Shown one piece after another: positions 2,696 through 40,660 of a stretch of DNA of 46,375 nucleotides; the stretch's first letter is position 1, and each line of letters starts with the position of its first letter. The notes beneath the pieces are model-generated. The model was given only the letters and a program-made list of their open reading frames with translations. It had not been told where the DNA came from and did not search any database. Both the position numbers and the translations under genes were made by a program. Origin of the DNA: Escherichia phage N15. The DNA lies in the sequence record NC_001901.1; one strand, 5' to 3'.

Positions 2696-4284
2696 AAATA
2701 CCATCTTTAGTGGGACCTGACGGGAAAACATCCCTTCGGGAATACGCGGGATATCATGGAGGTGGTGGCGGGTTTGGTGGTCAGCTGCGAGGCTGGAATC
2801 CGCCGAGCGAAAGTGCAGATGCAGCACTCCTTCCCAACTATTCTCGTGGAAATGCCCGCGCTGACGATCTGGTGCGAAATAATGGCTATGCGGCAAATGC
2901 CGTGCAGCTCCACCAGGACCACATCGTCGGGTCATTTTTCAGACTCAGTTATCGACCAAGCTGGCGTTATCTGGGTATTAATGAGGAAGATTCACGCGCA
3001 TTTTCGCGGGATGTGGAAGCTGCATGGAATGAGTATGCCGAGGATGACTTTTGCGGGATTGATGCCGAACGTAAGCGCACGTTTACGATGATGATCCGCG
3101 AAGGTGTGGCCATGCATGCGTTTAACGGTGAATTATGCGTGCAGGCGACCTGGGACAGCGATTCAACGCGTCTTTTCCGCACCCAGTTCAAAATGGTCAG
3201 TCCGAAGCGCGTCAGCAACCCGAACAATATCGGTGATACCCGGAACTGTCGTGCCGGTGTAAAAATCAATGATAGCGGTGCTGCGCTGGGATATTACGTC
3301 AGCGACGATGGCTATCCCGGCTGGATGGCGCAAAACTGGACCTACATCCCTCGCGAACTACCCGGCGGTCGACCTTCGTTTATCCATGTATTCGAACCGA
3401 TGGAGGATGGACAGACCCGTGGGGCCAATGCGTTTTACAGCGTGATGGAGCAGATGAAAATGCTCGACACCCTGCAAAATACCCAGCTCCAGAGCGCGAT
3501 AGTGAAGGCTATGTATGCGGCTACCATCGAGAGTGAGCTGGATACCCAATCGGCGATGGACTTTATTCTCGGTGCAGATAATAAAGAGCAGCAGAGCAAA
3601 CTGACGGGCTGGCTCGGCGAAATGGCAGCCTATTACTCTGCTGCGCCGGTTCGCCTTGGCGGGGCAAGGGTCCCACACCTGTTGCCAGGGGATTCTCTTA
3701 ACCTTCAGTCGGCGCAGGATACCGATAACGGCTATTCAACGTTCGAACAATCCCTGCTGCGTTATATTGCTGCAGGGCTGGGTGTGTCGTATGAGCAGCT
3801 TTCACGAAATTATTCGCAGATGAGCTACTCGACCGCACGCGCAAGTGCTAACGAGTCCTGGGCGTACTTTATGGGGCGTCGAAAGTTTGTGGCATCCCGA
3901 CAGGCCTGTCAGATGTTTCTTTGCTGGCTTGAAGAGGCGATTGTCCGCCGCGTGGTCACGCTTCCTTCGAAAGCCAGGTTCAGTTTCCAGGAGGCGAGAA
4001 CAGCCTGGGGGAATGCCAACTGGATTGGTTCTGGTCGAATGGCAATTGACGGTCTGAAAGAGGTGCAGGAAGCCGTCATGCTAATCGAAGCAGGTCTCAG
4101 TACGTATGAGAAAGAGTGCGCCAAACGCGGTGATGATTATCAGGAGATTTTTGCCCAGCAGGTCCGGGAATCAATGGAGCGTCGTGCTGCGGGTCTGAAC
4201 CCACCGGCATGGGCCGCTGCCGCTTTTGAGGCTGGAGTGAAAAAATCAAACGAGGAGGAGCAAGATGGCGCACGAGCTGCGTAA
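2692..4284 (+). CDS. portal protein (lambda gpB-like)
   Basis: 530 aa, position and size as lambda B; start overlaps W stop (ATGA). Confidence 0.9.
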
Positions 4285-10380: not shown

Positions 10381-12874
10381 CCTGGTCGTTAACCTTGACG
10401 TTAACTCGACAAAATTCAACGAGCAGCTCAGCTACGTTAAAAAAGAATTAAAGCAGACCGGCAATACGGCAAACGATGAAGCGTTACGTATCCAGCAGTC
10501 CTTCAGCCGCCAGGAGAACGCCGCGCGTAAGGCGGGTATTTCAGTGGGTCAGTATAACGCAGCGATGCGTATGCTCCCGGCGCAGTTTACTGACGTGGCC
10601 ACGCAGCTTGCGGGTGGGCAGAACCCCTGGCTGATTCTGCTTCAGCAGGGCGGTCAGGTTAAGGACTCCTTTGGCGGGATCATTCCGACATTCCGGGCGT
10701 TGCTGGGGACGATTTCCCCGTTGATGGTCGGCATTGGTGCATTGTCCGTTGCAACGGGCGCGTTGTTCTATGCCTGGTACCAGGGCTCTTCCACTCTGTC
10801 TGATTTCAACAAAACGCTGGTACTGTCGGGGAACACAGCCGGACTGACAGCTGACCGCATGCTGGCACTGGCGCGGAACGGACAGGCAGCGGGGCTAACG
10901 TTCAACCAGACCAGTGAAGCCCTGACCGAGCTTATCAATGCAGGTGTGCGTACTGGCTCGCGCTTTGATGAAATGAGCCAGGCGGTGGCGCGGTTTACTG
11001 ATGCCTCCGGCGTGCCGGTGGAGAAAGTCGCGGCAGCCTATGGCAAGCTCGCAACTGACCCGACATCGGGCCTGATCGCGATGGCCCAGCAGTTCCATAA
11101 CGTTACCGCTGAACAGATTGCCCATGTGGCGCAGCTGCAGCGTGCCGGTGATGAGGCTGGCGCACTGCAGGCGGCTAACGAGGCTGCAACAGCCGGATTC
11201 AACGACCAGACCAAAGCCATCCGCGACAATATGGGGACGATTGAATCTTCAGCGGACTCCCTGAAGCGCGCCTTCAAGTCGATGTGGGATGCGGCTCTGG
11301 ATATTGGGCGACCTGACACCGCGCAGGAGATGGTGGCAAAAGCCGAAGCTGCGTTCAAAAAAGCCGATGAAATCTGGAACCTGCGTAAAGGTGACCGATA
11401 TGTCAATGATGAGGCCCGCGCCCGATTCTGGAATGACCGCGAAACAGCCAGACTGGCGCTGGATATGGCGCAGCAGCAGGCGGGAATAGCCAGGGCGAAT
11501 GAAGAGAATGCATCGCGCGAAGCGGCTGCTGAATCGGATCGCCAGAAGTATGCTGCGCAGGCACAGGCAAACTATGCCAAAACGCAGACGGCACTGGAGA
11601 AATACACGGCCAGGCAGAGCGAGCTTAACAAGGCGCTGAAAGAGGGGCGGATCCTCCAGGCTGACTACAACATCAACCTGGCTGCCGCGAAAAAAGAGTA
11701 CGAAGACACCCTTAAAAAGCCGAAGAAGACCCCGGCAATCAGAACCCCCGCAGGTGCCCGTGCAACCGATACGGCCAGCGCCCAGACGCTGGAGCTGCAG
11801 GCACAGCTGCGCACCCTGCAGGAGCATAAGAGCATCAATGACACCATCAGCCAGCAGCGTCAGGAGCTGTGGCGTCAGCAGTCCCGCTTTACGGTTCTGG
11901 AAGAGGCCGCGAAGACCCGGACGCTTTCTGCTGAGGAAAAATCCCTGCTGGCCAGTAAAAGCGAGGTGCTTTCCCGTGCGGAGCTGAATGCGAAGCTCGG
12001 CGATCAGATAGTGGCTCAGGAGCGGCTTAATCGCCTGCAGGATACGTCTCAAAAATACGTCACGCAGATCGGCGAGAAAACCCGAGCCCTGGCGGAAAGT
12101 GCTGGTATGAGCAGTCGTGCAGCACAACGCCGCAATGAAGAGGCCCAGCTTCTTCAGGGCTGGAAAAATGGTGGCGGGTCTGAGAACGATGCCGGTTATC
12201 AGAATGAGCTACAGGCGCTGCAGGCGTATTACGCCGAGCAGGATAAGCTGCGGGACGACTGGCAATCCGGGGCCAAATCCGCATGGGCAGATTATGTTGA
12301 TTCTGCTTCAGATGCTTATGGCCAGATGAAGTCGTTTGCCACCAGTACGTTTGATGGCATCGGGCAAAATATGGCTGACATGCTGACGCGCGGAAAGGCT
12401 GACTGGGCTGACTTCACCCGCTCCACGCTCTCCATGCTGACACAGATCCTGCTGAAACAGGCGATGGTAGGCCTGGTGGATTCAGCGACAACCGCGCTGG
12501 GATTTGCAGGTGGCGGTTATACCGGTTCAGGCGGGAAATATGAACCTGCAGGTGTCGTTCACCGTGGTGAATTTGTTTTCACCAAAGAGGCTACAAACCG
12601 GATCGGCGTCGGCAATCTTTACCGGATGATGAAAGGGTATGCCACGGGTGGGTATGTCGGGGGCGGTGGTACAGGTCCAGCTGCAGCACCTTTCGGTGTC
12701 AGTGTATATGCCCCGGTGACGGTCGAAAATGCTTCCGGTAACGCACAGCAGCAAAACGACGGAGACAGGCTGGGTAAAGCGTATCAGCAGGTGATTAACA
12801 AATCTGTCAACGATGGCATCGCCAGGGCAATCCAGCCCGGTGGGCTTATCTGGAATGCGACCAATCGCAGGTAA
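10358..12874 (+). CDS. tail tape measure protein (lambda gpH-like)
   Basis: 838 aa, AGGAGG RBS, long coiled-coil-rich sequence, Gly-rich C-terminal part, synteny. Confidence 0.95.
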   Translation: MAQTAVGDLVVNLDVNSTKFNEQLSYVKKELKQTGNTANDEALRIQQSFSRQENAARKAGISVGQYNAAMRMLPAQFTDVATQLAGGQNPWLILLQQGGQVKDSFGGIIPTFRALLGTISPLMVGIGALSVATGALFYAWYQGSSTLSDFNKTLVLSGNTAGLTADRMLALARNGQAAGLTFNQTSEALTELINAGVRTGSRFDEMSQAVARFTDASGVPVEKVAAAYGKLATDPTSGLIAMAQQFHNVTAEQIAHVAQLQRAGDEAGALQAANEAATAGFNDQTKAIRDNMGTIESSADSLKRAFKSMWDAALDIGRPDTAQEMVAKAEAAFKKADEIWNLRKGDRYVNDEARARFWNDRETARLALDMAQQQAGIARANEENASREAAAESDRQKYAAQAQANYAKTQTALEKYTARQSELNKALKEGRILQADYNINLAAAKKEYEDTLKKPKKTPAIRTPAGARATDTASAQTLELQAQLRTLQEHKSINDTISQQRQELWRQQSRFTVLEEAAKTRTLSAEEKSLLASKSEVLSRAELNAKLGDQIVAQERLNRLQDTSQKYVTQIGEKTRALAESAGMSSRAAQRRNEEAQLLQGWKNGGGSENDAGYQNELQALQAYYAEQDKLRDDWQSGAKSAWADYVDSASDAYGQMKSFATSTFDGIGQNMADMLTRGKADWADFTRSTLSMLTQILLKQAMVGLVDSATTALGFAGGGYTGSGGKYEPAGVVHRGEFVFTKEATNRIGVGNLYRMMKGYATGGYVGGGGTGPAAAPFGVSVYAPVTVENASGNAQQQNDGDRLGKAYQQVINKSVNDGIARAIQPGGLIWNATNRR

Positions 12875-21478: not shown

Positions 21479-21659
21479 GCAAACCGCCGCCCATCGCATG
21501 CAAGAATGGGTGGCGGCTTAAATCTGCTCACAAAGAGCTACTGCCAAAAAATTTACAGAAGCCATAATTCGAATCGTGAGAATAACTTAGAAACGAAACT
21601 GCGAGCCTTTCAACAGCTACGCGCTGGCTGATACTTGCATATACTTTGAAATAAAACTA

Positions 21660-21675
21660 CTGTATAAAAAAACAG
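21660..21675 (+). promoter_or_regulatory. LexA (SOS) box CTGTATAAAAAAACAG
   Basis: Matches CTGT-N8-ACAG consensus with AT-rich centre; upstream of UmuD'-like gene. Confidence 0.75.
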
Positions 21676-21691
21676 TTATATGGTGAGAGTT

Positions 21692-22078
21692 ATGGGATTC
21701 CCGAGCCCGGCACAGGACTACGTTGAAGAACGAATATCACTGGACAAGCTCCTCTTGACTAGGCCATCGGCTACCTACTTCATGCGCGCCGGTGCCACTC
21801 ACTATCAAGAAGGTATCCTGTACGGTGCATTGCTGGTTGTTGATGCGTCACGTACACCATGTGACGGCTCGTTACTTGTTTGCCGGATGGATGGCGAACT
21901 TAGGATAAAGCGGTACCGTAAGTCACCAACCCCTCATCTTGAGGATTTGCAAACAGGAAGAAGAGAAGAGATACCGAAATATGATGATGAAACGAGTCCG
22001 GATGCAATATTTGGCGTGATCACGTACAGCATTAACGACATGAGGTCAGGTGAATTTGATGATTGTCCAGTGTTGTAA
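21692..22078 (+). CDS. UmuD'-like protein (already lacks UmuD N-terminal arm)
   Basis: GFPSPAQDYVEERISLDKLLLTRPSATYF aligns with E. coli UmuD from the Cys24-Gly25 cleavage site onward; alternative start 21680. Confidence 0.75.
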   Translation: MGFPSPAQDYVEERISLDKLLLTRPSATYFMRAGATHYQEGILYGALLVVDASRTPCDGSLLVCRMDGELRIKRYRKSPTPHLEDLQTGRREEIPKYDDETSPDAIFGVITYSINDMRSGEFDDCPVL

Positions 22079-22085
22079 AAAGCGA

Positions 22086-22115
22086 AAAGCCCCACGTATG
22101 TGGGGCTTTTTTTAT
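22086..22115. terminator. bidirectional terminator between umuD'-like and sopB
   Basis: agccccacgtatgtggggct hairpin flanked by A-run and T-run. Confidence 0.7.
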
Positions 22116-22120
22116 TGACC

Positions 22121-23149
22121 CTATTTTTTCTCTTTATTTTTTATAATATTTTCCAACTTATCGAGGTCGCGATTAACCTGCTCAGCTGCACCTAATTCTG
22201 CCTCCAATAACGCTTCTATTTTTTTTATTAAATTAGAGGGTATTTTACGGCTATCTACTTTCAAAGTGACAAAACTACCCTTGTATTTAGCTACAACACC
22301 TTCACCATATTTCTTCTCGGTCTTGGGCATTTCTTCCTTATCGACAAGAATAAAGTCCTGTAGTGCCTGAATAATTCTTGCGGGCTCGAAATCCTCTCCA
22401 GCTTGCTTCATACGAAGCAACTGCTTCGCACCATCGAGCATAGTCTGCTCGTTACCCTTATACACTTTAGATAAAGCATCGCCAGCGCGAGCTGATAGCT
22501 CTCCCGGATGCTTGAAGATAGACAGGATCTCCCTCGGTAATCCGGCGGTATTCATGCAGCGGTTCACGATATTACGGTCGATGCCCTCTGCTTCAGCCAG
22601 GGCTTTAACGTTACCATCAAATTCTTTCAGTCGGCGCAAGTACCGTTTCCCGCGTTCGTATGCACTGGTTGGCCGATAGTCGTTACCCAACTGTGACAAC
22701 TGCTGCATTTGTTCATCATCCAGCTCTCCAACGAGAACCCGATAATCGCTACCAGTGATGATGGCTGTTTTGCGGCGGCGTGAGCCATCGGCAATTTCGA
22801 TAATGCCTGACGTCCTTCTGGCGAACGCGGGGTTCTGCTGTCCTGAAGTGAGGAATGAAGGGATAAGGTCGGCCAGCGCTGATTCGTTCAGCAATTCCTG
22901 ATCACGTTCATTACCGAGCCAAACCATTGTGGCCTTTTCGACTTTATCAGCAGGAATGGTTTCCAGCTTAAAAGTCACGTTGCGGCCGCAAACCGGTAGC
23001 GTAATGCTATTCCCGGACAACGAACTTAATTTGCTCTGTAAGTCGCCAACCATCGGCGAAACCGATGGCGCTTTTTGCGGCGCATTATGGTTATTGCTCA
23101 TGAACGTTTCGATGTTGGGCGCATTTTTTAATATAGAGCGATTCTTCAT
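22121..23149 (-). CDS. sopB: partition protein SopB (ParB family)
   Basis: ITLPVCGR, GNERDQELL, DLIPSF, GIIEIADGSRRRK, GELDDEQM, GNDYRPTSAYERG match F-plasmid SopB; ATG 23149 with GGGAGG RBS. Confidence 0.9.
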   Translation of the reverse strand: MKNRSILKNAPNIETFMSNNHNAPQKAPSVSPMVGDLQSKLSSLSGNSITLPVCGRNVTFKLETIPADKVEKATMVWLGNERDQELLNESALADLIPSFLTSGQQNPAFARRTSGIIEIADGSRRRKTAIITGSDYRVLVGELDDEQMQQLSQLGNDYRPTSAYERGKRYLRRLKEFDGNVKALAEAEGIDRNIVNRCMNTAGLPREILSIFKHPGELSARAGDALSKVYKGNEQTMLDGAKQLLRMKQAGEDFEPARIIQALQDFILVDKEEMPKTEKKYGEGVVAKYKGSFVTLKVDSRKIPSNLIKKIEALLEAELGAAEQVNRDLDKLENIIKNKEKK

Positions 23150-23151
23150 AG

Positions 23152-24315
23152 TTAGTCCTCCCAACGAGGTTTGATTAGATCTTCGAAAATTTCTTTGCAG
23201 ACTGGCTCCCAGATTTCCACTGCATTTCGCCAGGCATTAAGCGTTGAGCGTTGATTTGCTGCTTGCTCAAATACGGTGCGCATCTTGATCTGGCCTTTAC
23301 CAACTTCATCAGTGACCCGCACGACCTGTCGCAAGACCATAGCTCCCCAGGTATTTCGAATCTGCTCCTCCATCCACCGGGACTGATTGCCGTTAGTAAG
23401 GCTGTATTTGGTCAGGAGCAGGCGGACGACAGGTTCAAAGCCGCCCAAATCGACGGTTTCAAGCAGGTCGAGCAGCATGGTGAAAAACTGAAGAACTGAT
23501 GCATAGTCGAACAGCTCTGCAGGGGTTGCTACCACGATGACGTCAGCAGCACAGACAACGTTAATAGTTCCCGTACCCAAGTTTGGCGCGCTGTCTATGA
23601 CGATAATGTCGTAGTTATCCCATACAGACTCGATAGCAGCACGAAGCATCAGATGAGGGGGATGAGGTAGCTTCCCCTCGGAATGGTACTGCATCAGATC
23701 TGTTTCAATGCGGTGAAGGGCCAGGCAGCTGGGGATTATGTCGAGACCCGGCCAGCATGTTGGTTTTATCGCATATTCAGCGTTGTCGCGTTTACCCAGG
23801 TAAAATGGAAGCAGTGTATCGTCTGCGTGAATGTGCAAATCAGGAACGTAACCGTGGTACATAGATGCAGTCCCTTGCGGGTCGTTCCCTTCAACGAGTA
23901 GGACGCGGTGCCCTTGCAAGGCTAACCATTGCGCCTGGTGTACTGCAGATGAGGTTTTATAAACCCCTCCCTTGTGTGACATAACGGAAAGTACAACCGG
24001 GTTTTTATCGTCAGGTCTTTGGTTTGGGTTACCAAACACACTCCGCATATGGCTAATTTGGTCAATTGTGTAGCCAGCGCGACGTTCTACTCGGCCCCTC
24101 ATCTCAAAATCAGGAGCCGGTAGACGACCAGCTTTTTCCGCGTCTCTGATAGCCTGCGGTGTTACGCCGATCAGGTCTGCAACTTCTGTTATACCCCAGC
24201 GGCGAGTAATACGACGCGCTTCCGGGCTGTCATCGCCGAACTGTGCGATGGCAATAGCGCGCGTCATTTCCTGACCGCGATTGATACAGTCTTTCAGCAA
24301 ATTAATTAACGACAT
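23152..24315 (-). CDS. sopA: partition ATPase SopA (ParA family, Walker-type)
   Basis: EMTRAIAIAQF..DDSPEARRITRRW, KGGVYKTS Walker A, near-colinear with F SopA; likely start 24315 (GAGG RBS); ORF extends to 24360. Confidence 0.9.
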   Translation of the reverse strand: MSLINLLKDCINRGQEMTRAIAIAQFGDDSPEARRITRRWGITEVADLIGVTPQAIRDAEKAGRLPAPDFEMRGRVERRAGYTIDQISHMRSVFGNPNQRPDDKNPVVLSVMSHKGGVYKTSSAVHQAQWLALQGHRVLLVEGNDPQGTASMYHGYVPDLHIHADDTLLPFYLGKRDNAEYAIKPTCWPGLDIIPSCLALHRIETDLMQYHSEGKLPHPPHLMLRAAIESVWDNYDIIVIDSAPNLGTGTINVVCAADVIVVATPAELFDYASVLQFFTMLLDLLETVDLGGFEPVVRLLLTKYSLTNGNQSRWMEEQIRNTWGAMVLRQVVRVTDEVGKGQIKMRTVFEQAANQRSTLNAWRNAVEIWEPVCKEIFEDLIKPRWED

Positions 24316-24376
24316 CCTGTTTCCTCTCAAACATGCCCTTATCTTTGTGTTTTTCATCATACTTTACGTTTTTAAA

Positions 24377-24774: not shown

Positions 24775-24830
24775 TATCAGCACACAATTGCCCATTATAC
24801 GCGCGTATAATGGACTATTGTGTGCTGATA
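24775..24830. other. telRL telomere resolution site: 56-bp inverted repeat with central 22-bp perfect palindrome (telO) CCATTATACGCGCGTATAATGG
   Basis: TATCAGCACACAAT...ATTGTGTGCTGATA outer arms and central palindrome read directly; matches remembered N15 telRL. Confidence 0.9.
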
Positions 24831-24994
24831 AGGAGAACATAAGCGCAGAACAATATGTATCTATTCCGGTGTTGTGTTCCTTTGTTATTCTGCTATTATG
24901 TTCTCTTATAGTGTGACGAAAGCAGCATAATTAATCGTCACTTGTTCTTTGATTGTGTTACGATATCCAGAGACTTAGAAACGGGGGAACCGGG

Positions 24995-26890
24995 ATGAGC
25001 AAGGTAAAAATCGGTGAGTTGATCAACACGCTTGTGAATGAGGTAGAGGCAATTGATGCCTCAGACCGCCCACAAGGCGACAAAACGAAGAGAATTAAAG
25101 CCGCAGCCGCACGGTATAAGAACGCGTTATTTAATGATAAAAGAAAGTTCCGTGGGAAAGGATTGCAGAAAAGAATAACCGCGAATACTTTTAACGCCTA
25201 TATGAGCAGGGCAAGAAAGCGGTTTGATGATAAATTACATCATAGCTTTGATAAAAATATTAATAAATTATCGGAAAAGTATCCTCTTTACAGCGAAGAA
25301 TTATCTTCATGGCTTTCTATGCCTACGGCTAATATTCGCCAGCACATGTCATCGTTACAATCTAAATTGAAAGAAATAATGCCGCTTGCCGAAGAGTTAT
25401 CAAATGTAAGAATAGGCTCTAAAGGCAGTGATGCAAAAATAGCAAGACTAATAAAAAAATATCCAGATTGGAGTTTTGCTCTTAGTGATTTAAACAGTGA
25501 TGATTGGAAGGAGCGCCGTGACTATCTTTATAAGTTATTCCAACAAGGCTCTGCGTTGTTAGAAGAACTACACCAGCTCAAGGTCAACCATGAGGTTCTG
25601 TACCATCTGCAGCTAAGCCCTGCGGAGCGTACATCTATACAGCAACGATGGGCCGATGTTCTGCGCGAGAAGAAGCGTAATGTTGTGGTTATTGACTACC
25701 CAACATACATGCAGTCTATCTATGATATTTTGAATAATCCTGCGACTTTATTTAGTTTAAACACTCGTTCTGGAATGGCACCTTTGGCCTTTGCTCTGGC
25801 TGCGGTATCAGGGCGAAGAATGATTGAGATAATGTTTCAGGGTGAATTTGCCGTTTCAGGAAAGTATACGGTTAATTTCTCAGGGCAAGCTAAAAAACGC
25901 TCTGAAGATAAAAGCGTAACCAGAACGATTTATACTTTATGCGAAGCAAAATTATTCGTTGAATTATTAACAGAATTGCGTTCTTGCTCTGCTGCATCTG
26001 ATTTCGATGAGGTTGTTAAAGGATATGGAAAGGATGATACAAGGTCTGAGAACGGCAGGATAAATGCTATTTTAGCAAAAGCATTTAACCCTTGGGTTAA
26101 ATCATTTTTCGGCGATGACCGTCGTGTTTATAAAGATAGCCGCGCTATTTACGCTCGCATCGCTTATGAGATGTTCTTCCGCGTCGATCCACGGTGGAAA
26201 AACGTCGACGAGGATGTGTTCTTCATGGAGATTCTCGGACACGACGATGAGAACACCCAGCTGCACTATAAGCAGTTCAAGCTGGCCAACTTCTCCAGAA
26301 CCTGGCGACCTGAAGTTGGGGATGAAAACACCAGGCTGGTGGCTCTGCAGAAACTGGACGATGAAATGCCAGGCTTTGCCAGAGGTGACGCTGGCGTCCG
26401 TCTCCATGAAACCGTTAAGCAGCTGGTGGAGCAGGACCCATCAGCAAAAATAACCAACAGCACTCTCCGGGCCTTTAAATTTAGCCCGACGATGATTAGC
26501 CGGTACCTGGAGTTTGCCGCTGATGCATTGGGGCAGTTCGTTGGCGAGAACGGGCAGTGGCAGCTGAAGATAGAGACACCTGCAATCGTCCTGCCTGATG
26601 AAGAATCCGTTGAGACCATCGACGAACCGGATGATGAGTCCCAAGACGACGAGCTGGATGAAGATGAAATTGAGCTCGACGAGGGTGGCGGCGATGAACC
26701 AACCGAAGAGGAAGGGCCAGAAGAACATCAGCCAACTGCTCTAAAACCCGTCTTCAAGCCTGCAAAAAATAACGGGGACGGAACGTACAAGATAGAGTTT
26801 GAATACGATGGAAAGCATTATGCCTGGTCCGGCCCCGCCGATAGCCCTATGGCCGCAATGCGATCCGCATGGGAAACGTACTACAGCTAA
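24995..26890 (+). CDS. telN: protelomerase (telomere resolvase, tyrosine-recombinase-like)
   Basis: 631 aa starting MSKVKIGELINTLVNEVEAIDASDRPQGDK, recognised as N15 TelN; acidic C-terminal tail; adjacent to telRL. Confidence 0.95.
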   Translation: MSKVKIGELINTLVNEVEAIDASDRPQGDKTKRIKAAAARYKNALFNDKRKFRGKGLQKRITANTFNAYMSRARKRFDDKLHHSFDKNINKLSEKYPLYSEELSSWLSMPTANIRQHMSSLQSKLKEIMPLAEELSNVRIGSKGSDAKIARLIKKYPDWSFALSDLNSDDWKERRDYLYKLFQQGSALLEELHQLKVNHEVLYHLQLSPAERTSIQQRWADVLREKKRNVVVIDYPTYMQSIYDILNNPATLFSLNTRSGMAPLAFALAAVSGRRMIEIMFQGEFAVSGKYTVNFSGQAKKRSEDKSVTRTIYTLCEAKLFVELLTELRSCSAASDFDEVVKGYGKDDTRSENGRINAILAKAFNPWVKSFFGDDRRVYKDSRAIYARIAYEMFFRVDPRWKNVDEDVFFMEILGHDDENTQLHYKQFKLANFSRTWRPEVGDENTRLVALQKLDDEMPGFARGDAGVRLHETVKQLVEQDPSAKITNSTLRAFKFSPTMISRYLEFAADALGQFVGENGQWQLKIETPAIVLPDEESVETIDEPDDESQDDELDEDEIELDEGGGDEPTEEEGPEEHQPTALKPVFKPAKNNGDGTYKIEFEYDGKHYAWSGPADSPMAAMRSAWETYYS

Positions 26891-34108: not shown

Positions 34109-34717
34109 TCATCTACCCTCAACCATGAACGATTTGATCGTACCGACTACTTGGTGCACAAATTGAAGATCACTTTTATCATGGATAACCCGTTGAGAGT
34201 TAGCACTATCAAGGTAGTAATGCTGCTCGTCATAACGGGCTAATCGTTGAATTGTGATCTCGCCGTTATTATCACAAACCAGTACATCCTCACCCGGTAC
34301 AAGCGTAAGTGAAGAATCGACCAGGATAACGTCTCCCGGCTGGTAGTTTCGCTGAATCTGGTTCCCGACCGTCAGTGCGTAAACGGTGTTCCGTTGACTC
34401 ACGAACGGCAGGAATCGCTCTGTGTTGGCAGGTTCTCCAGGCTGCCAGTCTCTATCCGGTCCGGTCTCTGTCGTACCAATAACAGGAACGCGGTCTGGAT
34501 CAGATTCAGTGCCATACAGTATCCATTGCACGGGCTTACGCAGGCATTTTGCCAGCGATAGCCCGATCTCCAGCGACGGCATCACGTCGCCACGTTCTAA
34601 GTTTTGGACGCCCGGAAGAGAGATTCCTACAGCTTCTGCCACTTGCTTCAGCGTCAGTTTCAGCTCTAAACGGCGTGCTTTCAGTCGTTCGCCTCGTGTT
34701 TTCATACCCTTAATCAT
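34109..34717 (-). CDS. cB: CI-like prophage repressor (N-terminal HTH, C-terminal S24-like fold with catalytic dyad substituted)
   Basis: LTLKQVAEAVGISLPGVQNLERG HTH; C-terminal ..VGNQIQ..PGDVILVD...EITIQRL aligns to lambda CI/LexA but Ser and Lys are replaced. Confidence 0.85.
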   Translation of the reverse strand: MIKGMKTRGERLKARRLELKLTLKQVAEAVGISLPGVQNLERGDVMPSLEIGLSLAKCLRKPVQWILYGTESDPDRVPVIGTTETGPDRDWQPGEPANTERFLPFVSQRNTVYALTVGNQIQRNYQPGDVILVDSSLTLVPGEDVLVCDNNGEITIQRLARYDEQHYYLDSANSQRVIHDKSDLQFVHQVVGTIKSFMVEGR

Positions 34718-39563: not shown

Positions 39564-39579
39564 CTGTGTTTATATACAG
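39564..39579 (+). promoter_or_regulatory. LexA (SOS) box CTGTGTTTATATACAG
   Basis: CTGT-N8-ACAG with AT-rich centre, immediately followed by TATTAAAT (-10-like). Confidence 0.7.
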
Positions 39580-39603: not shown

Positions 39604-39831
39604 ATGGTATACGATTCAATGACAGATGCAGCCGTGTCATGTTGTGAAAAACTTGATTCCCAGCTAAGCGATCTCGATGCTGTCCTGGATATGGTGAGCA
39701 CCGTTATGGCCTCACCAGAGGCCAGCCTTCATATGAATGAGGCGGCACGTCTTCTGCGCATGTCTCGTAATATGGTCCACAGATGCAAGGATGTTGTCGC
39801 GGATGAGCTCATTCGGCAGGCTGGCGAATAA
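39604..39831 (+). CDS. small protein (75 aa) under LexA box; candidate SOS-inducible antirepressor
   Basis: First ORF downstream of LexA box; N15 is reported to be induced via an SOS-regulated antirepressor, but assignment to this ORF is my inference. Confidence 0.4.
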   Translation: MVYDSMTDAAVSCCEKLDSQLSDLDAVLDMVSTVMASPEASLHMNEAARLLRMSRNMVHRCKDVVADELIRQAGE

Positions 39832-39895: not shown

Positions 39896-40183
39896 TCAAT
39901 ACACAGCATGAATATCAATGCTTGCACCGCAAGCCTTAGCGTATCGAGATAGTGTCTTCATGCTGGCACCTAGTGGGTTGCTTTCCAGGCGGCTAATTGC
40001 TGATGGCTGCAACCCCATGCGTTCAGCCAGCGCAGACTTCGTCAGGCCAGCTTTCTCCCTCATCTCGTAGAGCATTTCAACCATCGCCAACTCCTTGTCG
40101 GCATCTTCGTAACCCCGGATAGCCTCCGGGGTATTGAGCAGTTCTTCTTTCACCTGATTAAATGGGATGCCTTTTACTTTCAT
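39896..40183 (-). CDS. HTH (XRE-family) antitoxin, HigA-like
   Basis: 95 aa; LTKSALAERMGLQPSAISRLE HTH; ATG overlaps toxin stop (TAATG). Confidence 0.75.
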   Translation of the reverse strand: MKVKGIPFNQVKEELLNTPEAIRGYEDADKELAMVEMLYEMREKAGLTKSALAERMGLQPSAISRLESNPLGASMKTLSRYAKACGASIDIHAVY

Positions 40184-40494
40184 TAGCTCATCTCCTTCAG
40201 ACGCGTTCTGGCGATATCAATTGCGTGGGTAGGCGTCTTTTGCGTCTTCTTAACAAATGCATGTAGCAGATAAATTTCGTTACCTACCGCGTAAGCGTAC
40301 AGCGTTCTCGCTATGTTTTTATCCCCTACCCTTAGTTCGAAAAGGCCACCACCGATAACGCGGCTATGAGGCATTTTCAGCTTGTTCCCTTCACTTTCCA
40401 GTCTCTCGATCAGCCGGGTCATGCGACCGCGTAGCTCATCAGGTAATTCTTTAAGCTCATCCAGCGCTGCCGGGTGGGTTATCACGTTAAACAT
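40183..40494 (-). CDS. RelE/ParE-superfamily toxin, HigB-like (toxin-first operon)
   Basis: 103 aa from ATG 40494 with AGGAGG RBS; LKMPHSRVIGGGLFELRV...LYAYAVGNEIYLLHAFVKKTQKTP typical of this family. Confidence 0.75.
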   Translation of the reverse strand: MFNVITHPAALDELKELPDELRGRMTRLIERLESEGNKLKMPHSRVIGGGLFELRVGDKNIARTLYAYAVGNEIYLLHAFVKKTQKTPTHAIDIARTRLKEMS

Positions 40495-40554
40495 AGTATA
40501 ACCTCCTGATGTGGAAAATATACTAAAAACGTAAAAATCACACAATAGGCAAAT

Positions 40555-40570
40555 TTCACTAAAAAGTGAA
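40555..40570. promoter_or_regulatory. palindrome TTCACTAAAAAGTGAA upstream of toxin-antitoxin promoter (operator candidate)
   Basis: 5-bp inverted arms; candidate -35 TTGTGT / -10 TATATT on - strand just downstream. Confidence 0.45.
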
Positions 40571-40660
40571 AAATAAAGCTGGATGTGCTTATTGGGCAGA
40601 GTTACAGTTTGTGTCGTTGAGAGGGGTAAAGCCCATAACCGCATGAATCTGGAGTAAATT

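Follow-up and report, generated by a model that had tools for sequence, protein, structure and literature searches.

HumD of phage P1 and its relatives

A relative of the gene studied here is HumD of phage P1, the founding member of its family. McLenigan et al. (1999), whose work is also cited in PMC7092418, present P1 HumD as a functional homologue of UmuD′, and the title of their paper states that it 'facilitates SOS mutagenesis'. In the P1 record, a LexA binding site is annotated for the gene, together with the note 'functionally complements E. coli UmuD′'. P1 HumD (YP_006569.1) is 69.8% identical over its full length to Gp26, the product of gene 26 of Escherichia phage N15 (a telomere, or linear-plasmid, phage), and the HumD proteins of P7 and SJ46 show the same 69.8% identity. 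Like Gp26, the P1 protein starts at the UmuD cleavage site and ends in the same C-terminal tail, and its gene lies just downstream of a LexA site and is not accompanied by umuC. The two proteins differ at the former active site, where P1 HumD keeps a serine (ADSH) and Gp26 has a threonine (GATH). They also differ in their genomic neighbours, with lxr and phd/doc adjoining P1 humD, whereas a tail-fibre gene and sopB flank N15 gene 26. Our literature search found no experiment on N15 Gp26, P1 HumD being the only family member for which tests were retrieved.

Gp23 of Klebsiella phage phiKO2 is 64.8% identical to Gp26 and also has a threonine at the position of UmuD Ser60 (ANTC). The phiKO2 region is syntenic with that of N15, comprising a tail gene, a LexA site, the umuD′-like gene, a terminator, sopB, sopA, telRL and the protelomerase gene. 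The phiKO2 gene differs from that of N15 in its GTG start codon and in the presence of a divergent dinI-like gene (gene 22) that shares the LexA site. In N15, the corresponding 180-bp gap at 21480–21660 (compare positions 2681–2923 of the viral locus L002) contains no minus-strand ORF of at least 30 aa. The cellular counterparts, E. coli UmuD and UmuD′ (PDB 1umu, 1ay9, 1i4v and 8gmt), the accessory subunit of Pol V, have the S24 fold and the Lys97 equivalent in common with Gp26. Compared with UmuD, Gp26 lacks the 24-residue arm and the cleavage site, has Thr in place of Ser60 and carries an additional acidic tail of 10 residues, and its gene is not part of an operon with umuC.

Broken copies of humD were encountered as well. 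In BTP1/P22-like contigs from IMG/VR (L023–L025, positions 3001–3373), the reading frame is interrupted by a stop codon after residue 28 and the 3′ end is frameshifted, yet the LexA box is retained, and these copies look like pseudogenes. Truncated humD fragments were also observed in Stx and lambdoid phages.

Identity and start codon of gene 26

All coordinates refer to the phage N15 record NC_001901.1, the 46,375 nt of which were analysed as one strand from 5′ to 3′ and are referred to as the window. The coding sequence at 21692–22078 on the plus strand comprises 128 codons and a stop codon. Exact-sequence look-up matched all 128 residues of its product (21692–22075) to the N15 'UmuD-like protein' Gp26 (NP_046921.1, AAC19062.1 and UniProt O64339). 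The gene is already known as N15 gene 26, a member of the HumD family, and the feature is an ordinary one whose recognition here is a rediscovery. There is little new in it as a discovery, since it is annotated in GenBank, its P1 homologue was published in 1999 and the family is curated at NCBI.

The longest reading of this frame in the ORF list spans 21680–22078 and gives a protein of 132 aa, and the Logan gene call likewise takes the upstream ATG at 21680. Translation almost certainly begins instead at ATG 21692, which gives the 128-aa protein beginning with MGFPSPA, and the 132-aa Logan call is probably wrong. This assignment is based on the homologue starts, with MGF at the aligned start in ~116 of 120 homologue clusters (mostly as MGFPSPA), on the NCBIfam HumD profile, whose first position corresponds to the Met of ATG 21692, and on the 128-aa form in GenBank. 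It is also based on the relatives, in which the position of the upstream N15 ATG lies within a conserved Shine–Dalgarno sequence, GGAGGTGAG. In N15 the Shine–Dalgarno sequence is GGTGA (21682–21686, plus strand), located 5 nt before ATG 21692, and P1 humD has a GGTGA in a similar place, a few bases before ATG-GGN-TTC.

The initial annotation had named a start further upstream, with an intact cleavage arm, as one finding that would overturn its reading of the gene. An in-frame TAA stop codon at 21665–21667 on the plus strand, inside the LexA box, rules out any such start, and an N-terminal cleavage arm is therefore impossible for Gp26.

Gp26 is homologous to UmuD from the cleavage site onward

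Gp26 scored 204.1 bits against the NCBIfam HumD equivalog model NF051876 ('HumD family translesion DNA polymerase'; cut-off 120), the match extending over the full length of the protein (residues 1–128 on profile positions 1–129 of 129). The UmuD subfamily model, by contrast, remained below its cut-off (81 vs 110 bits). The Pfam Peptidase_S24 domain (PF00717) was recognised with 36.6 bits (cut-off 23.3) and was the only Pfam match in the 132-aa reading, covering its residues 5–81, and PHROG 811 ('UmuD-like protein') matched with E = 4e-48. Some databases name such proteins LexA-family transcription factors, a designation that does not suit Gp26, which has no DNA-binding domain.

Homologues are widespread, with 99 phage records in a tblastn search of a phage collection and 548 proteins at E ≤ 1e-10 in a large protein database. 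These proteins are uniform in length and start, many are named 'HumD family', and they come mostly from Enterobacter, Escherichia, Citrobacter, Salmonella and Klebsiella. The nearest solved relatives by sequence are E. coli UmuD′ and UmuD (HMMER against PDB; 1umu, E = 6.6e-19). An AF2 model of Gp26 had its best PDB matches in UmuD and UmuD′ (TM 0.59–0.74), and the fold also matched LexA. The model is of moderate quality (mean pLDDT 67.6, core ~80), with residues 8–23 and 117–128 below 50.

HMMER against PDB and MAFFT agree in placing Met1 of Gp26 on UmuD Cys24 and Gly2 on Gly25, and in tblastn K-12 UmuD matches the window only through residues 25–139, over which the identity is ~38–40%. Gp26 thus starts at the Cys24|Gly25 cleavage position without the N-terminal arm, as HumD family members do. 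The tetrapeptide GATH lies on GDSM of UmuD, aligning Thr36 (codon ACT, 21797–21799, plus strand) with the nucleophile Ser60 after a deletion of one residue just before it, and RIKR lies on TVKK, aligning Lys73 (codon AAG, 21908–21910, plus strand) with the general base Lys97. HMMER and MAFFT concur on both positions. The initial annotation had proposed that the ORF corresponds to UmuD only from the cleavage site onward, with Thr at the Ser60 position and Lys kept at the Lys97 position, and the alignment with UmuD and the S24 domain showed its residue-level statements to be correct throughout.

A LexA operator overlaps a putative umuDC-like promoter

The LexA box that had been proposed upstream of the ORF also withstood scrutiny. 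The palindrome CTGTATAAAAAAACAG at 21660–21675 is a near-consensus LexA box and forms the 16-mer core of a 20-mer operator, TACTGTATAAAAAAACAGTT, at 21658–21677. Of these 20 positions, 18 agree with the umuDC operator of E. coli K-12, TACTGTATATAAAAACAGTA, and two differ. Strict CTGT-N8-ACAG matches occur three times in the window vs 0.49 expected, and none of 100 shuffles reached three. Of 24 HumD-type viral loci, 22 have a strict box whose distance to the start codon is 32–37 nt, as does P1, and LexA sites are annotated at the position equivalent to the N15 box in the records of P1 and phiKO2.

The E. coli umuDC promoter is arranged with its −10 hexamer forming the left end of the operator. 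In N15 the left end of the operator, TACTGT (21658–21663), doubles as the probable −10, and a −35-like hexamer, TTGCAT (21635–21640, plus strand), lies 17 nt upstream of it. The spacing of TTGCAT-17 nt-TACTGT is the same as that of TTGATC-17 nt-TACTGT in E. coli umuDC, and most HumD loci carry TTGATC at 17–18 nt from the −10. From the comparison with E. coli umuDC and the relatives, we infer that TTGCAT and TACTGT constitute a umuDC-like promoter of gene 26. The hexamers are weak, and a simple promoter scan called no promoter at the LexA box because the −10 matches at only 3/6 positions. With an operator at its promoter, gene 26 has the arrangement of a member of the SOS (LexA) regulon.

Gene 26 stands alone without umuC

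The segment 21600–22120 contains, in order, an AT-rich leader, the palindrome, a purine-rich ribosome-binding region, the ORF ending at 22078 and a hairpin. The hairpin (22085–22110) is GC-rich, has T-runs on both sides and was flagged on the minus strand; on the plus strand its stem is followed by TTTTTTTATT. It lies between gene 26 and the convergent sopB and is a probable bidirectional terminator, and the phiKO2 record shows a putative terminator at the matching place. Two partition genes convergent with gene 26 come next on the minus strand, a SopB-like ORF (22121–23164) and a ParA/SopA-like ORF (23152–24360). The first 19.5 kb of the window are occupied by a lambdoid head and tail module that is HK225- and phi80-like, and this is followed by the tail-fibre gene with an endosialidase-chaperone domain, sopBA, a telomere palindrome, and genes for protelomerase, Rep and a Q antiterminator. 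The telomere palindrome, CCATTATACGCGCGTATAATGG, is perfect over 22 bp (24792–24813), is located upstream of the protelomerase gene (24953–26890) and corresponds to the telomere-resolution core telO of N15 and phiKO2. The Rep protein encoded by N15 repA is of the primase/helicase type and has 1324 aa.

No umuC homologue was detected in the window, as the initial annotation had stated. Searches by tblastn with UmuC of K-12 and UmuC of a phage contig (IMS domains confirmed) gave a best E value of 0.32, and no IMS domain was present in the ten larger ORFs that were scanned beyond the structural module, all of which have other identities. In the positive control, umuC was present at full-length umuD loci such as L027. 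Gene 26 is hence a stand-alone gene without a cognate umuC, as is typical of the HumD family. It is not organised as a umuDC-type Pol V operon, the downstream positions being taken by the terminator and the convergent sopB.

Proposed role of Gp26

These features make it very probable that Gp26 is a LexA-controlled, pre-made analogue of UmuD′ that works with host UmuC, a reading drawn from sequence comparison and from the analogy with P1 HumD. In the lysogen, host LexA would occupy the operator at 21658–21677, which overlaps the −10 of the umuDC-type promoter, and keep gene 26 off. Upon DNA damage, RecA would become activated, LexA would cleave itself and gene 26 would be transcribed. Because the 128-aa product starts at the point where RecA-stimulated self-cleavage cuts UmuD, Gp26 would be born in the UmuD′ form, and the slow post-translational activation step would be skipped.

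HumD of P1 reportedly dimerises and binds both UmuC and RecA filaments. Gp26 most likely dimerises and binds host UmuC in the same manner, giving rise to a Pol V-like translesion polymerase. If N15 Gp26 acts as P1 HumD does, its production during induction of a damaged prophage would help to replicate damaged phage or host templates, which is where we infer the benefit to the phage. The proposal in the initial annotation of a LexA-repressed, lone UmuD′ form that depends on a host polymerase is in line with these results, and it agrees with both P1 HumD and the existing annotation of N15 Gp26.

The initial annotation had also considered a checkpoint modulator, for which nothing in our analysis speaks. 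The checkpoint role belongs to uncleaved UmuD, and Gp26 is without the N-terminal arm of that form.

A near-invariant C-terminal tail

The HumD-specific tail of Gp26, SGEFDDCPVL, corresponds to residues 119–128 (22046–22075, plus strand) and is absent from UmuD in the alignment. In the form GEFDDCPV(M/I/L)-COOH, it belongs to the best-conserved parts of HumD proteins. Its last eight positions are each at least 81% conserved in 112 clusters, seven of them >92%, with counts of 112 for E, 111 for F, 108 and 112 for the two D residues, 105 for C, 109 for P, 104 for V and 108 for M/I/L. The tail resembles, as a resemblance only, the C-terminal tip of E. coli SSB, MDFDDDIPF-COOH. Our full-text literature search for the tail motif found no mention of it, and the AF2 model is uninformative in this part, where its confidence is low (pLDDT <50, residues 117–128).

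The near-invariant tail and the conserved Thr-His/Tyr pair at the former active site suggest that HumD proteins are under constraints beyond those of a simple UmuD′ surrogate. We see a small chance that they are more than UmuD′ without cleavage and that the SSB-like tail and the Thr-His/Tyr pair confer a role in recruitment or interference that UmuD′ lacks. The tail could dock HumD, or the HumD2–UmuC polymerase, on the pockets through which host replication and repair proteins interact with SSB; alternatively, it could compete with SSB for those pockets. If this is true, an SSB-mimic tail would provide phage HumD with a function that the cellular protein does not have, and the C-terminal tail is the one feature of the locus that we flag as meriting experiment.

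Gp26 might instead act mainly on RecA filaments or on the host SOS/UmuD pool, as a modulator and not as a translesion cofactor. It could do so by capping RecA filaments, by titrating UmuD and UmuD′ as heterodimers, or by recruiting or competing for SSB-binding proteins through the tail, and would thereby tune recombination and the SOS response during induction. UmuD′ binds RecA filaments and UmuD′2C inhibits recombination; the tail suggests a partner not shared by UmuD′, and the residues at the old active site are conserved rather than drifting. Nevertheless, we regard this as unlikely. The UmuD′ core is well conserved (38–40% identity, residues 25–139), and binding of a partner by the tail would be hypothetical, and the tail has no confident predicted structure. 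Furthermore, complementation of UmuD′ is noted in the P1 record, and the title of McLenigan et al. (1999) assigns to P1 HumD the facilitation of SOS mutagenesis. A UmuD′ analogue serving host UmuC is the role that we prefer for Gp26.

The former protease site is probably vestigial

Self-cleaving S24 proteins have a Ser nucleophile, a Lys general base and an Ala/Cys-Gly scissile bond N-terminal to the core. Gp26 retains the general base (Lys73), carries Thr36 in place of the Ser nucleophile and begins at the Gly of the scissile bond, so that on its sequence it is classed as an S24-fold homologue and not as a self-cleaving member.

Residue frequencies were determined for 121 proteins, namely Gp26 and the 120 best HumD cluster representatives. 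The Ser60 position is occupied by Thr in 103 of the 121, by Ser in 15 and by Ala in 3, and the following residue is His in 107. At the Lys97 position, Lys is found in 117 proteins, Met in 3 and Thr in 1. The threonine is thus the norm of the HumD family and not a peculiarity of the N15 gene. In viral contigs it is encoded by ACG, ACA and ACT, with Ile in one locus, which suggests that the Thr is maintained by selection and not frozen by recent ancestry, and the Thr together with the following His or Tyr is held across synonymous codon changes.

In an IMG/VR subclade (L017–L022 and L026, ~3001–3387), Met replaces Lys97 (RIMRYR) and Thr-Tyr takes the place of Ser60 and Met61. The catalytic dyad is therefore entirely gone in these proteins, while the LexA box, the length and the C-terminal tail are intact. 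Every full-length umuD in the same scan (L027–L033), on the other hand, retains GDSM and has a genuine umuC downstream of it. In HumD proteins, the missing arm is accompanied by a lost constraint on the catalytic chemistry. Ser60 was reportedly shown by Nohmi et al. (1988) to be required for cleavage but dispensable when pre-made UmuD′ acts in mutagenesis. The predominance of Thr, the occurrence of Ser and Ala at the same position and the change from Lys to Met in one subclade argue for a vestigial protease site and against new chemistry. The S24 site of Gp26 would have no substrate left, which fits the replacement of Ser by Thr and, in the subclade, of Lys by Met. In the HumD family, the protease dyad decays once the cleavable arm is lost, while the tail and the LexA operator stay fixed, and the family illustrates neatly how a self-processing enzyme has been converted in nature into a subunit with a purely structural role.

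It is highly improbable that Gp26 is instead a working Thr/Lys peptidase acting in trans on another protein, such as host UmuD or a different LexA-like protein. UmuD is known to undergo cleavage between molecules, a Thr nucleophile is possible in principle and the equivalent of Lys97 is kept in 117/121 proteins. However, the former GDSM now reads GATH and is preceded by a one-residue deletion, Ala (three clusters) and Ile (one locus) also occur at the nucleophile position, and a whole subclade has exchanged Lys for Met while its LexA box and the remainder of the protein are kept. Next to no credence can be given to the idea that gene 26 is what is left of a decaying umuDC operon and no longer has a function, since the degenerate catalytic residues and the broken relatives (the in-frame stop in L023–L025 and the truncated copies in lambdoid and Stx phages) are outweighed by 548 homologues (E ≤ 1e-10) of uniform length and start, by the conservation of operator, Shine–Dalgarno sequence and C-terminal tail, by synonymous codon variation that keeps the amino acids and by the noted complementation of UmuD′ by the P1 member.

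Other LexA boxes and S24-fold proteins in N15

A second LexA box, CTGTGTTTATATACAG, is located in an intergenic region at 39564–39579, just upstream of a plus-strand ORF of 75 aa (39604–39831) whose product weakly matches PHROG 10889 ('anti-repressor', E = 1.2e-8). The N15 antirepressor AntC is LexA-controlled according to Mardanov & Ravin (2007), as cited in PMC3121763, and the box and the 75-aa ORF presumably represent the AntC antirepressor locus. As the antirepressor also appears to lie behind a LexA box, production of Gp26 would coincide with prophage induction. The third CTGT-N8-ACAG match in the window, CTGTCGGGGAACACAG at 10823–10838, lies inside the tape-measure gene, has a GC-rich spacer and is probably due to chance.

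A repressor-like protein of 202 aa with HTH_3 and Peptidase_S24 domains is encoded on the minus strand at 34109–34717 and is presumably the N15 prophage repressor CB. It has Gln at the UmuD Lys97 position (ITIQRL vs FTVKKL) and is therefore a second S24-fold protein of N15 with a disabled dyad, which fits an induction that depends on the antirepressor and not on cleavage. Beside the antirepressor locus, two adjacent small ORFs on the minus strand (39896–40644) encode a 95-aa HTH regulator (PHROG 1373) and a 153-aa protein whose residues 51–152 match PHROG 2523, a group of unknown function; by its layout, the pair looks like a toxin–antitoxin system.
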